This document shows positions 1 through 5,642 of a stretch of DNA of 5,642 bases, one piece after another. Within the stretch, counting starts at the first letter, position 1. Each line of letters opens with the position of its first letter. The position numbers and the translations under genes are program-made. Under the pieces are notes generated by a model. That model did not search any database. It saw nothing but the letters and a program-made list of their open reading frames with translations, and was not told where the DNA came from. The DNA lies in IMG/VR virus record IMGVR_UViG_2698536484_000011, positions 1 through 5,642 of that record. One strand, given 5' to 3'. Source of the DNA: a virus. Its lineage: Duplodnaviria; Heunggongvirae; Uroviricota; Caudoviricetes.

Positions 1-71
1 AATTCACTGTCGGCGAAGGTAAGTTGATGACTCATGATGAACCCTGTTCCATGGCTCCAGATGACAAACAT
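1..71 (-). CDS. Possible 5' end of an unidentified gene running off the left edge (N-terminus MFVIWSHGTGFIMSHQLTFADSE...); partial
   Basis: Minus-strand ATG at 71..69 opens a frame that stays open to position 1, preceded by an in-frame stop at 83..81 and only a weak GAG Shine-Dalgarno. The plus strand is also open from 3 to 104 (stop TAG 105..107), so this could instead be the 3' end of a plus-strand gene. Too short to decide. Confidence 0.2.
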   Translation of the reverse strand, partial: MFVIWSHGTGFIMSHQLTFADSE

Positions 72-119
72 GATCTCATATCAGGGACTTGTTCGCACCT
101 TCCCTAGAGTAGATTACAC

Positions 120-358
120 CGGAAATACCCAACCCGACCAGAATAAAGTAGATCAAGAAGATAATTATAACTTCCCTATTTATACTTAAAAAACCATTAT
201 TAAAAATAATTTTTCTTTCCAAAATCAGACCCCACATTTAATAAGACAACATGATTTATTAATTATCTAAAAATCTCTGCAATGATATTGTATTACATAA
301 ATCTTCAAATAACATTAATCATTCTATCTTGAAACTTGTCTTAAACAAGATTACCTCT
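120..358. other. AT-rich non-coding spacer, possibly a horizontally acquired junction or promoter region
   Basis: Long A/T runs (e.g. ttattaaaaataatttttctttcc, taattatctaaaaatc) contrast with the GC-richer phage genes to the right. No ORF with a start and ribosome-binding site was found. A TATAAT hexamer on the minus strand (179..174) exists but is expected by chance in AT-rich DNA. Composition judged by eye, not computed. Confidence 0.45.
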
Positions 359-525
359 TTACTCTGCTGAGTCAAACAGCCTAGCCCACTCACTTGTATC
401 ACTCATCTTTAACATCGCAGCGTAGTTTCTAACTGGAGCATACCGAATATGACCGCTATTAACATTATGCCGTAACTGCATATTTAGATATTGGATTAGG
501 GGCATCGCGCTGACAGAACTCAAAT

Positions 526-545
526 GCGGGCTCTTTGCCGCCCGC
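526..545 (-). terminator. Candidate intrinsic terminator of the dam-A operon
   Basis: GCGGGC (526..531) and GCCCGC (540..545) form a 6-bp GC stem with an 8-nt loop. On the minus-strand RNA it is followed by AUUUGAGUUCUGU, a moderately U-rich tract. It lies about 60 nt 3' of the A stop codon. Confidence 0.35.
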
Positions 546-553
546 CCCCGCAG

Positions 554-597
554 AATCACGCTATCCGACGCAACCAGCTGCGACGGATAGCGTGATT
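554..597. repeat. Perfect 14-bp inverted repeat (long hairpin) immediately 3' of the gene A stop
   Basis: aatcacgctatccg (554..567) is the exact reverse complement of cggatagcgtgatt (584..597), with a 16-nt spacer whose centre is the palindrome cagctg. It is followed on the plus strand by taattcattcttt. Could be a terminator (possibly bidirectional) or a protein-binding site. Confidence 0.6.
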
Positions 598-601
598 TAA
601 T

Positions 602-3214
602 TCATTCTTTAGGGTAGCGACCTTCCGCACCCGCCAGCATTTTTTGATATTCCCCGACCGGATCAAACCGCAGGTGCGTGGCATCAATGCCGTGGTTATC
701 CCGTAAATGTTCCCATAATTTATTCACCGTCCGTGACTCATTAGGTAATTGACGCGTTATCAACTGGCCGCCAGCACTGGCTTGATAAAATTTCCCGCCA
801 ATCTCCAGACGGCTCCCCATTAACAGCGAAACGGCCTGAATCTCTGAAATCTCAACCAAACACAACGCCGCATCAGCCAGCAGACTGGCAACCGCAGGGG
901 CAAGCGCTGCCCGCCTGGCTTTATCAGCCACCGATCTGGCCTCGGTTTTTTCCACGGCAGAACGCCAGGCAACATCTAATTCGCTCCCTGGTTCATAAGG
1001 TGATCCGCTGTGCCGCCTTTTGAATGGTGCTTCACGTAGTCGCCGTATCAATTTGCGCCGCGTTGGCTGGTCCATATTTTCAAAATCGACGATTTCCTCT
1101 TCTGATTCTTCTGTAATACCCTCCACACCAGGCGAAAAATCGGTGATTTTTTCGTCTTCCGTAGAGTTATTGACAGAACTCCAAGCGTCGCCGGTTGGCG
1201 ACGGCAAAAGGTCAACCCCCAAACCGGGGCCGCTTTTGGCCCCAGTGACGGTTTTGGATTTGGCTCGAATTTTCCACTTAACCAGACGGGTGCAAATACG
1301 GGAGGCATCCCCCAGACGCGGCGACCAGACCCCGAAAACCTTTTCGGGGATCTCACAATAAGCATTCATTTCATCAGCGGGCTGATAGGCCAGACGGACG
1401 ACATAGTTTTCTCGCGGGATCAAAACACCACCCTGGCGGATGATGTAAGTAGCAAAGCATCCGACATCGGCAGCGGCGCAAACCGCATCCATTGCAGGAT
1501 CCACAAGCAATGGCGCACCACGTTTGAAGGTACTGTCAATTTTCTGTCGGGTCGTGATCTGATTACTAAGTTTGCGCAGCTCGCGGTAAACCGATATGGG
1601 CGGCTGTCCGATGGGCTGAAACTGGCGGATACGGTGAAGCGATGCCCAGGCCATTGCATATTTGGCGCTTTCATTCAGCGGCTTGCCGCTTTCGTCGTCC
1701 AGTTCACCGGCCAGCGCGTGGCCGTCGATATTCTTCGAAATGTATTTAGCGATGTATGCCGTTGCTGACCCTTTCCGTGGGTCCATTTTTTTTGACTTGA
1801 AACGAGCGCCGGTATTGCGGCCCAGCTCGTCGCGGTCTTCCGCAATGAAGTAGGTGCGAAGGATCGCAACCGTGGCTTTGACTTGCTCTTGTGGCATAAA
1901 CAGCAACGCGTGCCAGTGTGGTGTCCCATCGTGATGCGGCTCGGCGACACGGAAGCCATAAGGGCGCAAATCTTCGCGTTTCAGTTTGGCGGTTGCCCGG
2001 TTCCACACACGGCATAAATAGCACTGCGCCTGGGCGACGGTGGAATGATTCCATTTGGCGTTATGGTGGCCGGATGCAATATTACTGTGATATTTCGACG
2101 GGCAAGTGATTGTCAGGAAGATGCCAACATCGCCGCGACTTTGGGCAACAAGCTCAACCCCAGCCATTCGGGCCATAAGCTCATGGCGACGAATAGCCGG
2201 GTTTGACGTGGATTTATTAATCATGTCCTCAAGTGAGGAAACGTTGCCGTCTTCGTCTACCAGTTCATGACTTTTGAAAAAATCCCGGTTTTTACGGCGC
2301 TGTTCCTGCCACTCGATCAGGCTGGAAGCGCTAACGTATGCGTGCGCTTTTTTATTTACCGCGCCAACGGCTCGCAGCTGGTTTTCGCGCCAGTCACAAC
2401 GCAGGCGCCAGATTTTGCGCCCCCACCAGTCAGGCGAAGCCATACGCAAAATGGCCGTACATATCCGATCACGTTCCCACGGCGCATACCATGCAGGCGG
2501 CACAATGCGAAGCGCCAGCATTTCGCGGCCCAGATGACAATAAAGCCAGTCCAGTTCTTCGACGTTCATGTCGGAAACATTCTGTCCCAGGGCTTCGCAT
2601 TCCGTCCCCAGCATTTCAGCCATGCGGCTGGCGATCTCATTAGCGGCGCTTAGTGCTTCCCGCTTTGTGAAATCAGCCAGCCGTTGCCAGCGCCCGAACC
2701 AGTACGCGGCCAGTTCGCCGGTGATATCAGGCGAAACACCTTGCCTTGTGCGCACAACATCAAGACGCAGCAATGATTTTTTCACTGTCCCCATAAGAAA
2801 ATCATTGGTGTGTCTGGTTTCACGGTTGACCCGTAACCACTCAATTTTTTTACGCCAGACTTCACGAATGAAGAACGGCTCTGATAATAAACGTGCTTCG
2901 ACACCTTCTGGCGTATTGGCCCAGGCTGCCGCCGTGGCTTTAGCGGCTTCCATTTCTTGCCGGATTATATTTTGATGGGCGGCCAGTGGCAGGCCGCATG
3001 GTTCGTACCTGTCCAGCGCCTGGATGAGCGCATCACGGTCACGAACTTCGGCGGGATTGTAACCGGCACGTTTGAAGATGTGATCGATATGTTTTTTTAC
3101 GGCAGGATGATGCGCCACCGCCCCAGCAAGCGGGGCGATTTTTTTCGGTTCATAGATGTACGGGCCAACAGCTGGACGCGGTGCGTTCCAAGGCCATGCG
3201 AAAGCGTTAGTCAT
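602..3214 (-). CDS. Rolling-circle replication initiator (replication endonuclease), phage P2/186 gene A family, 870 aa
   Basis: The translation contains the HUH motif as PHWHALLF (H433-W-H435, nt 1910..1918) and the paired catalytic tyrosines YIAKYISK (Y487 and Y491, nt 1754..1756 and 1742..1744). This signature is shared by the phiX174 A and P2 A initiators. ATG at 3214..3212, stop TGA at 604..602. Long uninterrupted frame in a GC-typical coding region. Confidence 0.93.
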   Translation of the reverse strand: MTNAFAWPWNAPRPAVGPYIYEPKKIAPLAGAVAHHPAVKKHIDHIFKRAGYNPAEVRDRDALIQALDRYEPCGLPLAAHQNIIRQEMEAAKATAAAWANTPEGVEARLLSEPFFIREVWRKKIEWLRVNRETRHTNDFLMGTVKKSLLRLDVVRTRQGVSPDITGELAAYWFGRWQRLADFTKREALSAANEIASRMAEMLGTECEALGQNVSDMNVEELDWLYCHLGREMLALRIVPPAWYAPWERDRICTAILRMASPDWWGRKIWRLRCDWRENQLRAVGAVNKKAHAYVSASSLIEWQEQRRKNRDFFKSHELVDEDGNVSSLEDMINKSTSNPAIRRHELMARMAGVELVAQSRGDVGIFLTITCPSKYHSNIASGHHNAKWNHSTVAQAQCYLCRVWNRATAKLKREDLRPYGFRVAEPHHDGTPHWHALLFMPQEQVKATVAILRTYFIAEDRDELGRNTGARFKSKKMDPRKGSATAYIAKYISKNIDGHALAGELDDESGKPLNESAKYAMAWASLHRIRQFQPIGQPPISVYRELRKLSNQITTRQKIDSTFKRGAPLLVDPAMDAVCAAADVGCFATYIIRQGGVLIPRENYVVRLAYQPADEMNAYCEIPEKVFGVWSPRLGDASRICTRLVKWKIRAKSKTVTGAKSGPGLGVDLLPSPTGDAWSSVNNSTEDEKITDFSPGVEGITEESEEEIVDFENMDQPTRRKLIRRLREAPFKRRHSGSPYEPGSELDVAWRSAVEKTEARSVADKARRAALAPAVASLLADAALCLVEISEIQAVSLLMGSRLEIGGKFYQASAGGQLITRQLPNESRTVNKLWEHLRDNHGIDATHLRFDPVGEYQKMLAGAEGRYPKE

Positions 3215-4101
3215 TCACATATGCCCGTAGAAGTCGCAACCTTGAGAATACCGATCACCTCACTGGCGGCCCCTCGGGTAATGGCGTTCGCGCTGACAGA
3301 ACGGTTAACGCTAATTTCCTGGAAGTTGAAAGAGCGATAAATCTCGCAGGTGGCTGGGGTGTCGCTATTGGACAGGATCACCGGCGAACCAGTAAGGCGG
3401 TTAATATCCAGCAGAGCGGCAGCTAACTGGCGATGCTCTTTAATCCCAAACGGGGCGGTGTGGTATTGGGTGAAATTAGCGGTTTCGCTTGTTGGCAGGT
3501 ATGGCGGATCGCAATAGATAACCGCGTCACTACCAATCATGATTTTTAACGTGCTCTGGAAATCGCAGCACACGAAAATAGCTTTCGTGTCGTTAGCTTT
3601 TTCAGAGAATAAACGGATTTGTTCTTCCGGGAAGTAAGGCGGGGTTTTGTGACGCCCAAAGGGAACGTTATATCCACCCTGTTGGTTGTAGCGTACTACG
3701 CCGTTATATCCGTGACGGTTCAGGTAAAGAAATTGTGCTGCACGAAGAATCTTGCCCGCGTCCGGCCCATCTTCAAACACACTGCGCAATGACAGTAGGT
3801 CACGGGCGCGGGCGTTGAAATCATCGCGGATCCACTTATAGCCGTCTTTATCGCCGTACACTTTAAACAGTGGGCGAGCAGCGTCGATCACCGCATCAGG
3901 CCAGCGGGTTATCTGGCGATACAGGTTAATTAAATCTGGGTTGATATCACCCAGGATATAACGGCGATATTCAGTATTGAGGAAAACAGAAGCACCGCCG
4001 ACAAACGGTTCCACCAGGCAATCGGCTTTCGGCAGAATCGGCAGCAAATCAGGCATAACGCGGCCTTTACCACCGGGCCATTTAACGAGAGATCGAATCA
4101 T
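3211..4101 (-). CDS. dam: DNA adenine methyltransferase, Dam family (alpha-class N6-adenine MTase, probably GATC-specific), 296 aa
   Basis: N-terminal KWPGGK, AdoMet motif I CLVEPFVGGASVFLN, and catalytic motif IV YCDPPY (D198-Y201, nt 3499..3510). Blocks such as FLYLNRHGYNG..YNVPFGR and DPPY..ANFT..YHT align closely with E. coli Dam as I recall it. Start is preceded by a GGAG Shine-Dalgarno; the stop overlaps the A start (ATGA). Confidence 0.95.
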   Translation of the reverse strand: MIRSLVKWPGGKGRVMPDLLPILPKADCLVEPFVGGASVFLNTEYRRYILGDINPDLINLYRQITRWPDAVIDAARPLFKVYGDKDGYKWIRDDFNARARDLLSLRSVFEDGPDAGKILRAAQFLYLNRHGYNGVVRYNQQGGYNVPFGRHKTPPYFPEEQIRLFSEKANDTKAIFVCCDFQSTLKIMIGSDAVIYCDPPYLPTSETANFTQYHTAPFGIKEHRQLAAALLDINRLTGSPVILSNSDTPATCEIYRSFNFQEISVNRSVSANAITRGAASEVIGILKVATSTGICE

Positions 4102-4171
4102 TTTTACTTTCTCCAGGGTGCAAGAAGCCCGACGCGTTAGCGCCTGTTTCTTTTTTGTGGGTAGTTAGTTG

Positions 4172-4561
4172 TTAATTTACTGCGTTATCTGGCGCGGGTG
4201 GTTTGTCGCGTATCGCCTGAATTTCGGCGCGTGGTGCGGCGTAGTCCTCAAATTCCCACGGCATTGATGCTGCAAATTCGGAAAGGCGCTTAATGCCCAT
4301 CAAAAGGCACGTTTGCTCCTTTTCGGTTAGATTTTCGTAAGTACAACCCAGCTGTTTGGCGGTCAGCTTCGGCATTCCGGCTATGTATCTGGACGCATCG
4401 TTTGCCAGGATGAAAATCACCTTTTTACAGGCATCATCCAGGCGGTTAAAACGGGTTGCAGTGTCGTTCACGCGTGAGACGTTCAAACTTGCTTGCAGTC
4501 GAGCCCGTTGCTCTAAGAACTGGCGACGGCCTGGCTGTTGTCCTGTCTTATCCATCAACAT
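4172..4561 (-). CDS. Hypothetical early-operon protein, about 129 aa
   Basis: Frame open from 4567 (GTG) to the stop. I prefer ATG at 4561..4559, which sits 5 nt after a GGAGG Shine-Dalgarno (minus-strand ggggaggtggtt-ATG). Same strand and tight spacing with neighbouring genes. I could not recognise a family from the translation. Confidence 0.7.
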   Translation of the reverse strand: MLMDKTGQQPGRRQFLEQRARLQASLNVSRVNDTATRFNRLDDACKKVIFILANDASRYIAGMPKLTAKQLGCTYENLTEKEQTCLLMGIKRLSEFAASMPWEFEDYAAPRAEIQAIRDKPPAPDNAVN

Positions 4562-4576
4562 AACCACCTCCCCGAA

Positions 4577-4798
4577 CTACGCAAAGATGCCCATTAAGCG
4601 GGAAAACCAGCGGCGCTTATTACGCGGGCGCGACATAAACGGTACACGGCAGTTTTTAACAAATTGAACATCTGCCGCTTTAGGCTGGAAGAACCGCCCG
4701 TCCGGGGTTTCAATCCAGCCGCGTTGATGCTGACGGTGGGTGATCTGCTGGCCGTGGGTGAGCAGGCTGGCGAGTGAAGGGCACTGTGTTAAGTCCAT
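4577..4798 (-). CDS. Small basic hypothetical protein, about 73 aa, first gene of the minus-strand operon
   Basis: The ORF track starts at ATG 4870 (97 aa), but the internal ATG at 4798..4796 is preceded by ACGGAG with 6-nt spacing. The upstream extension lacks a Shine-Dalgarno and overlaps the candidate operator and promoter. C-terminus is Arg/Lys-rich (RPRNKRRWFSR). No helix-turn-helix or zinc-finger pattern recognised. Confidence 0.55.
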   Translation of the reverse strand: MDLTQCPSLASLLTHGQQITHRQHQRGWIETPDGRFFQPKAADVQFVKNCRVPFMSRPRNKRRWFSRLMGIFA

Positions 4799-4936
4799 GT
4801 TGATCTCCGTCATATTGAAAAGATGCCGGGATATAACCCCACGCCCGGCACGTGTTTCCTGTGATAACATCGCTATGCCTGTGTAACTTTGAGCAGTGAA
4901 TCAGGCATAACAATCACCAACACAGAAGGAGTTGTA
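4799..4936. promoter_or_regulatory. Divergent intergenic control region with an inverted-repeat candidate operator
   Basis: Lies between the start of the minus-strand operon and the plus-strand gene at 4937. Contains the 7-bp perfect inverted repeat TGCCGGG (4824..4830) and CCCGGCA (4844..4850) with a 13-bp spacer, atataaccccacg. The spacer carries -10-like hexamers on both strands (TATAAC plus, TATATC minus). A TTGAAA -35-like hexamer sits at 4815..4820. Promoter assignments are by eye only. Confidence 0.45.
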
Positions 4937-5416
4937 ATGAAATTCAATGTGTTTTTTAAAAAAGACCACGGATCACACTGGGTACTTTCCGATGGTTCCC
5001 CCCTCTTTGAAAGTCCACTATTTGAAACAAGACCTAAAGCCATTGATGACCTTGAGAACTTTGTAGGCCTTATGGAATCGCCAATTTTTATTAAGGCTGG
5101 TGACGATATTAATTCTGGCGATACAGAAAACTGTCCATCTGTAGTTATTTCTTTAAAACAGCATGAATCGCTATGGGGCTGGGAGTTATTTATCTCAAAA
5201 AATGGACAACTGTCTAAAGTTACCGAAAGTTCAGGTAATGGCTTTGACTCATTAGAATTAGCAAAGCAAAGTGCCCAGTTTTTTATTAATGCCATTATCG
5301 ACGCTCCTATTCTGGATCAAGCCGATGTCGCTATCCCCGGTATGCACTTCTCAAAATCTTTCGAGGAAACGCACCACATTGGTGACATTCACCCATCCAG
5401 TAAATGGTTCAAATAA
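4937..5416 (+). CDS. AT-rich hypothetical protein, 159 aa; likely horizontally acquired accessory (moron) gene
   Basis: ATG at 4937 is 5 nt after a strong Shine-Dalgarno, GAAGGAG (4925..4931). The tracked upstream start at 4889 is TTG with no ribosome-binding site. Composition is visibly more AT-rich than the flanking phage genes. Two internal segments (HWVLSDGSPLFESPLFETRPKAIDDLENF and WGWELFISKNGQLSKVTESSGNGFDSLELAKQSAQFFINAI) loosely fit a tandem YegP/DUF1508-like repeat pattern; this is unverified. Confidence 0.8.
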   Translation: MKFNVFFKKDHGSHWVLSDGSPLFESPLFETRPKAIDDLENFVGLMESPIFIKAGDDINSGDTENCPSVVISLKQHESLWGWELFISKNGQLSKVTESSGNGFDSLELAKQSAQFFINAIIDAPILDQADVAIPGMHFSKSFEETHHIGDIHPSSKWFK

Positions 5417-5445
5417 TCCATCACTGCGGCGTTATCGTTTTTCTT

Positions 5446-5468
5446 GTGCGAGGTGGAACATCTCGCAC
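5446..5468 (+). terminator. Candidate terminator hairpin after the 159-aa gene
   Basis: GTGCGAG (5446..5452) and CTCGCAC (5462..5468) form a 7-bp stem with a 9-nt loop, followed by gguuucuucauc. It lies 30 nt after the TAA stop at 5414..5416. The U-tract is imperfect. Confidence 0.3.
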
Positions 5469-5538
5469 GGTTTCTTCATCAACCATCAACTCATAAATTC
5501 TGATGCTGTTATCACCGTTTGATACGTCATCAAATACC

Positions 5539-5642
5539 GGTGATGCTGCCAACTTACTGATTTAGTGTATGATGGTGTTTTTGAGGTGCTCCAGTGGCTT
5601 CTGTTTCTATCAGCTGTCCCTCCTGTTCAGCTACTGACGGGG
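5539..5642 (+). mobile_element. IS1 left end (terminal inverted repeat plus insA 5' region); the element continues beyond the window
   Basis: From 5539 the sequence GGTGATGCTGCCAACTTACTGATTTAGTGTATGATGGTGTTTTTGAGGTGCTCCAGTGGCTTCTGTTTCTATCAGCTGTCCCTCCTGTTCAGCTACTGACGGGG matches the canonical IS1 terminus as I recall it. The 9 bp flanking the insertion are tcaaatacc (5530..5538). Confidence 0.92.
5594..5642 (+). CDS. insA: IS1 InsA, N-terminal fragment truncated by the window edge
   Basis: GTG at 5594 followed by codons for [15 protein letters not shown], matching the recalled InsA N-terminus [22 protein letters not shown]. Only 16 codons are in the window. Confidence 0.75.
   Translation, partial: [16 protein letters not shown]

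Follow-up and report, generated by a model that had tools for sequence, protein, structure and literature searches.

A probable simple insertion of IS1 in an accessory gene of a P2-like Escherichia coli prophage beside yegR, with a likely polar effect on early genes

Introduction

The sequenced phage that comes closest to the DNA studied here is Salmonella phage SI7 (Irrigatiovirus, Peduoviridae; NC_049460.1). From gpA into fil, 78% of the query can be aligned to SI7, at 94% identity. The two share a layout in which the integrase and C repressor genes are divergent from cox and the early operon ends with dam and the gene for the gpA endonuclease. In SI7, cox overlaps fil directly, and the two small genes of 115 and 159 amino acids that concern us below are missing. 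The other known system that bears on this locus is the insertion sequence IS1, which normally duplicates 8 or 9 bp of its target (PMC12428005).

We analyzed one stretch of 5,642 nucleotides, called the window throughout. A preliminary description, made from the letters of the window, had proposed that IS1 begins near its end and has separated the two parts of a gene, of which a 38-codon frame would be the C-terminal remainder. The same description conceded that a frame this short had a substantial chance of being random, and it placed the putative gene on the immunity or integration side of the prophage. Here we compare the window with intact prophages, with contigs that carry the far side of the element, and with other insertions in and around the same gene.

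Results

Layout of the prophage

Positions 104-5538 of the window are part of a P2-like (Peduoviridae) prophage integrated beside yegR in E. coli, and they match six intact or near-intact prophage loci at 100% identity, with 0 mismatches, up to and ending at 5538. The order of genes in these prophages is terminase, portal, ogr, a 930-aa gene, gpA, dam, a gene called at 127-131 aa, and fil (Table 1). Next is the 159-aa gene, encoded on the other strand, and after it come the 115-aa gene, cox and the divergent genes for the C repressor and the integrase. The 115-aa gene, in which IS1 lies, is the first gene after cox and is read in the early lytic direction. Its first placement, with the immunity or integration genes, does not hold; C, cox and int lie beyond IS1, and the contigs with the far junction carry them intact. 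In the intact locus L001 and others, as well as in the far-side contig L013 past IS1, we find a 91-aa protein matching PF10743 (Phage_Cox), a 99-aa helix-turn-helix protein and an integrase matching PF00589. A Cox/C repressor/integrase switch with divergent promoters is thus present, its genes lying outside the window, and a consensus scan detects a promoter-like TTGACA/TAATAT upstream of cox on the early strand. The early genes at 602..4798 on the minus strand lie downstream of IS1 in the sense of early transcription and are cut off by it from the promoter on the cox side.

Table 1. Features of the window, with positions counted from its first nucleotide
Feature	Position	Strand	Remarks
gpA, replication endonuclease	602-3214	-	870 aa; PF05840 Phage_GPA; RefSeq label on identical DNA of L001; intact
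dam	3211-4101	-	Pfam MethyltransfD12; intact
Gene called at 127-131 aa	4172-4567	-	131-aa ORF; intact
fil	4577-4798	-	Pfam Phage_186_Fil; intact
159-aa gene	4937..5416	+	phrog_9021 (unknown function); convergent with the interrupted gene; intact
3' remnant of the 115-aa gene	5421..5538	-	third base of codon 77, codons 78-115, stop 5423-5421
Terminator-like hairpin	5444..5470	+	L001 6145-6171; consensus scan and RNA fold
Target-site duplication, CAAATACC (8 bp)	5531..5538	.	abuts the left inverted repeat (IRL) of IS1; same 8 bases after the right end of IS1 in L013/L014
IS1, left end	5539..5642	+	IRL from 5539; start of insA; reads towards the window end

At its other end, the window opens with the terminal 103 bases of an IS5 (positions 1-103), 100% identical to annotated IS5 copies. 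This element adjoins its target, CTAG (104-107), which falls within codon ~45 in the 930-aa gene, and the prophage holds at least two insertions (IS5 and IS1). The window has the appearance of an entire short-read contig, a 5.4-kb prophage segment broken at the IS5 and IS1 repeats.

The gene that follows gpA (window 1-237 on the minus strand; L003 2509-5301) codes for 925-930 amino acids with a hydrophobic N-terminus. Six alleles occur over the eight loci checked, some other loci are frameshifted, and the protein has no Pfam or PADLOC match. Its gene occupies what we take to be the position where P2 has the variable tin/old genes.

The left end of IS1

The proposed start of IS1 at 5539 was borne out. 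Window 5539-5642 matches a complete 768-bp IS1 in locus L004 over bases 1-104 at 100% identity, and the window is cut off 104 bases into the element. The terminal inverted repeat typical of IS1 (GGTGATGCTGCCAACTTACTGAT...) is present at the boundary, where the sequence reads ...gatacgtcatcaaatacc / ggtgatgctgccaacttactgatttag... (the slash marks the junction). Of 5426 complete E. coli genomes, 4969 have IS1 copies that match this stretch; RefSeq labels the matches "IS1 family transposase." insA starts with GTG at 5594 and runs towards the window end, with 16 codons inside the window; the corresponding gene call in the IS1 of L004 begins 55 bases in and gives a 232-aa product that matches Pfam Zn_ribbon_InsA, HTH_Tnp_IS1 and DDE_Tnp_IS1. 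The insA of the inserted element points towards cox, that is, against early transcription. The parts of this IS1 that we see are its two ends, 104 bases in the window and 83 bases in a far-side contig, and 768 bp is the length of the L004 copy.

The L004 element itself (8570-9337; strain SW071610) sits in the neighboring 127-aa gene, at the equivalent of window 4273-4281. Its target duplication can be read as 8 bp (aaattcgg), or as 9 bp when the final C of the element is included, and both of its ends are identical to those of the IS1 studied here.

The open frame beside IS1 is the end of a conserved gene

On the minus strand, a frame is open from 5537 to 5424, with a stop at 5423..5421, and its translation, VFDDVSNGDNSIRIYELMVDEETVRDVPPRTRKTITPQ followed by the stop, reproduces the one first given. 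It is identical to residues 78-115 of an intact 115-aa protein (L001 6122-6469), encoded by a gene of 348 bp and listed in RefSeq as the hypothetical protein WP_000379073.1 of NZ_CP095529.1. Because of this identity, the frame is not a chance ORF but the C-terminal end of a real gene, as the preliminary description had suspected. The remnant lacks its own start codon; the sole in-frame start upstream of it is a TTG inside IS1, which would give a 43-aa ORF.

The opposite reading, in which the frame arose by chance and IS1 sits in noncoding DNA, draws on the small number of codons and on several negative searches. The 115-aa protein matched no Pfam family, PADLOC (E <= 0.01) returned 0 families for the 115-, 159-, 131- and 930-aa proteins alike, and tblastn of the 115-aa protein against 50,697 phage records gave no match. 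Several observations nevertheless make this reading almost inconceivable. First, the exact 115-aa protein, including the identical C-terminus, is carried by at least 1000 contigs. Second, a family alignment contains relatives of the same length at 60-96% identity from E. coli, Salmonella, Citrobacter and Kluyvera, so that length and frame are kept down to 60% identity. Third, a PHROG search aligns WP_000379073.1 end to end with phrog_10410 (1-115 of 115, E 2e-80). Fourth, dN/dS is 0.04-0.28 against homologues at 68-70% protein identity. Finally, an AlphaFold model predicts, with moderate confidence (pLDDT 75.6), a small beta sheet packed against one long helix. We thus rejected the idea of a chance frame on the grounds of protein identity, family conservation, the PHROG match and dN/dS. 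The family is small: a profile search of 1.84 billion protein representatives recovered 15 relatives of the 115-aa protein, and the longer of these 15 contain no recognizable domain.

The far side of IS1 and the target duplication

For a simple insertion, the far side would be expected to read ...CATTACC-CAAATACCTGAAAAAG.... We predicted the N-terminal product that would result from reading into the right end of IS1 and then sought it as an exact match in public proteins. With an 8-bp duplication, the prediction is a protein of 80 aa that ends in ...FLFQVFG before the stop, and it has an exact record (CTT50789.1 / WP_261289638.1), which RefSeq lists as a hypothetical protein. The product predicted for a 9-bp duplication, which would end in ...FLFQVFEVMTPTY before the stop, is not in the public protein collection. 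The 8-bp product is read in five public contigs, the only ones in which the far junction was found. On this side of the element, the gene retains its first 79 codons, to which the right end of IS1 adds one extra Gly codon and TAA.

Two of the far-side contigs, L013 (assembly GCA_001286165.1) and L014 (run ERR134557), were compared with the window. Both contain yegR, int, the gene for the 99-aa C-type repressor, cox and the truncated 115-aa gene, and both finish with ...caggtatttg / ggtaatgactccaacttattgatag..., the part after the slash being the right inverted repeat of IS1. In the orientation of the window, these ends read ...GGAGTCATTACC and supply the second, imperfectly matching inverted repeat. 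The stretch of IS1 at the contig end is 83 bases in L013 and 26 bases in L014, and the 83 nt in L013 agree in full with the right end of the IS1 in L004. Over 2,200 nt past the far junction, there are 0 mismatches to the intact prophage L001.

When the flanks are joined in silico, with IS1 and one 8-bp copy removed, the result is exactly the intact allele of L001; taking out a 9-bp copy instead does not rebuild it, and the longest match between the two flanks is their 8-base overlap. The direct duplication of 8-9 bp of target that is expected of IS1 is therefore found, with CAAATACC on both sides. This is the check that the preliminary description had suggested, here run with public contigs, and it revealed the duplication as well as the continuation of the frame. 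The forecast of a duplication stood, but its length was 8 bp (caaatacc, 5531-5538) rather than the 9 bp (tcaaatacc) that had been predicted. For IS1, duplications of 8 bp are less common than those of 9 bp. The target is AT-rich, with a GC content of 34% over ~25 bases on either side, 40.5% in the gene and 50% in the window.

Because the joined flanks minus the 8-bp copy restore the intact allele, the event appears to have been a simple insertion in which nothing was deleted. A competing account is that the IS1 of the window has since mediated a deletion or rearrangement, such that unrelated DNA lies beyond it, and that L013 and L014 come from a related strain with the simple insertion. The window does stop inside IS1, which leaves the far side of that copy outside it, and IS1 is numerous in E. 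coli, with a median of 10 places per genome for the query that includes the IS1 end. Nevertheless, we consider this account very improbable. An exactly reciprocal junction exists at the same site and in the same orientation, with an 8-bp overlap and a flank that is 100% identical, and any rearranged derivative must first have passed through the simple insertion. Moreover, stops at 83 (L013), 26 (L014) and 104 bases (window) into IS1 fit one short-read assembly broken at a repeat, and no IS1-mediated deletion was seen at the junctions compared. We infer that the window and the far-side contigs L013 and L014 hold the same insertion; independent IS1 elements that hit one and the same base pair, share their orientation and have reciprocal ends are far less likely.

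The convergent 159-aa gene

The 159-aa gene next to the remnant had been described as divergent; it is in fact convergent with the interrupted gene. Its protein belongs to the orphan family phrog_9021 and has no Pfam hit. A terminator-like hairpin lies 28 bases past its stop, within the 3' coding end of the 115-aa gene. The hairpin has a stem of 12 bp in the consensus scan and 10 pairs in the RNA fold, a 3-nt loop, and then TTTCTTCATC. On the plus strand, the predicted fold has a free energy of -19.7 kcal/mol and a z of -2.7; that of the minus strand is weaker and is without the U-tract. GC content is about 40% in the 115- and 159-aa genes, against 50-56% in their neighbors. In divergent prophages, a 156-aa homologue (58-60% identity) is likewise convergent beside 115/119-aa homologues, between the cox side and fil (the pairs are at L017 2479-3297 and L018 2438-3260). 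By these sequence comparisons, the 115- and 159-aa genes are a conserved accessory pair of P2-like prophages.

Spread of the insertion, and other insertions in the gene

The IS1 junction is rare. Thirteen complete E. coli genomes, among them NZ_CP095529.1 with locus L001, carry the flank without IS1, and in these the match halts exactly at window 5538. The left IS1 junction occurs in none of 5426 complete E. coli genomes, an exact search for it found none in GTDB species representatives or JGI metagenomes, and exact look-up of the junction-spanning ORFs of 43 aa (IS1) and 53 aa (IS5) returned no record.

The 115-aa gene has also been split independently, at three other positions and in other lineages, by 1310-bp IS3-family elements with a 3-bp duplication; we take these elements to be IS629-like. 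At codon 104 (L002 6161-7470, L005 10524-11833; window-equivalent 5457-5459), the element lies in the loop of the terminator-like hairpin. This insertion is found in O45:H2 and related STEC, the 104-aa form of the protein occurring on 179 contigs and a 102-aa partial form on 487. A second element is at codons 22-23 (L007 10768-12076), and a third, at codon 90, is judged from the fusion protein P0004.

Discussion

We consider it highly probable that the window records a simple IS1 insertion in an accessory gene of a P2-like E. coli prophage by yegR, with a polar effect that is likely on precedent. In this event, a single IS1 would have transposed into codons 77-80 of the 115-aa gene, generating an 8-bp duplication of CAAATACC and no deletion. 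What could have spoken against such an event, namely the lack of a duplication, unrelated sequence on the far side, or the lack of any protein resembling the reconstructed frame, was not what we found. The annotation of the short ORF should accordingly name it as the 3' part of a gene interrupted by IS1. The interrupted gene belongs to a tiny orphan family, whose members in P2-like prophages always have the same convergent neighbor.

The insertion could have two kinds of consequence. First, the full-length 115-aa protein is presumably lost in the IS1-bearing prophage, where the cox side can still yield a fragment of 79 residues plus Gly. This loss alone is unlikely to cripple the phage because the gene is accessory; in SI7, cox abuts fil. 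Second, IS1 is a strongly and classically polar insertion. Early transcription enters it from the cox side, against the direction of insA, and would be expected to end for the most part inside the element. After derepression, fil, the 127-131-aa gene, dam and gpA would then be expressed less. With less Fil, Dam and, above all, gpA, replication of the prophage would be weakened or abolished. By analogy with this classical behavior, we consider such polarity towards fil, dam and gpA likely here. The polarity could be softened by an internal promoter, for example a second one upstream of fil, and the intact operon already reads through an antisense gene. With IS1 at this end of the contig and IS5 at the other, the prophage is probably impaired.

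Insertions in the 115-aa gene have arisen several times, and one possibility is that the IS1 insertion is one of several selected knock-outs. On this view, the lysogen would pay a cost for the 115-aa gene, or for transcription running on from cox into the replication genes, so that lineages with the gene broken by an insertion sequence would be favored and the prophage locked in. The independent breaks by 1310-bp elements at codons 104, 22-23 and 90 are what such selection might produce. Several considerations make this unlikely, however. Neighboring genes have been hit too, by IS1 in the 127-aa gene of L004 and by IS5 in the 930-aa gene of the window, and frameshifts also occur in gpA. The gene is AT-rich, which favors IS1. 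Further, thousands of assemblies (9002 index blocks), many of them from IS-rich STEC lineages, contain the prophage, so that a few independent hits are expected, and the large contig counts probably reflect one clonal event.

A related proposal concerns the pair as a whole. One of its genes would be transcribed as part of the lytic early operon and the other in the opposite direction, with a terminator of its own; as an example, the 159-aa/115-aa module could combine an effector expressed in the lysogen with a modulator of the lytic phase. That the pair is a module of lysogen-phage conflict, and that selection accounts for the repeated IS1 and IS3-family hits, seems unlikely to us, and we regard the pair as a candidate accessory module. 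In place of selection, we favor ordinary prophage decay by insertion sequences, which has probably brought IS5 and IS1 together in one rare lineage. The IS1 junction is a marker of that lineage.

The event is already known in kind: it is a textbook insertion of IS1 into an AT-rich accessory prophage gene. In its terminal sequence, in the start of insA 55 bases from the end, in its AT-rich target and in the 8-bp duplication, the element behaves as the IS1 family of the Enterobacteriaceae does; nothing in this copy is unusual, and the outcome is a classical gene disruption. With respect to PHROGs, the intact protein fits the whole profile of phrog_10410, a family of unknown function, whereas the window keeps only the last 38 residues. 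Compared with phage SI7, finally, the E. coli prophage has in addition the low-GC convergent pair, one gene of which IS1 has split, and the 930-aa gene that follows gpA.
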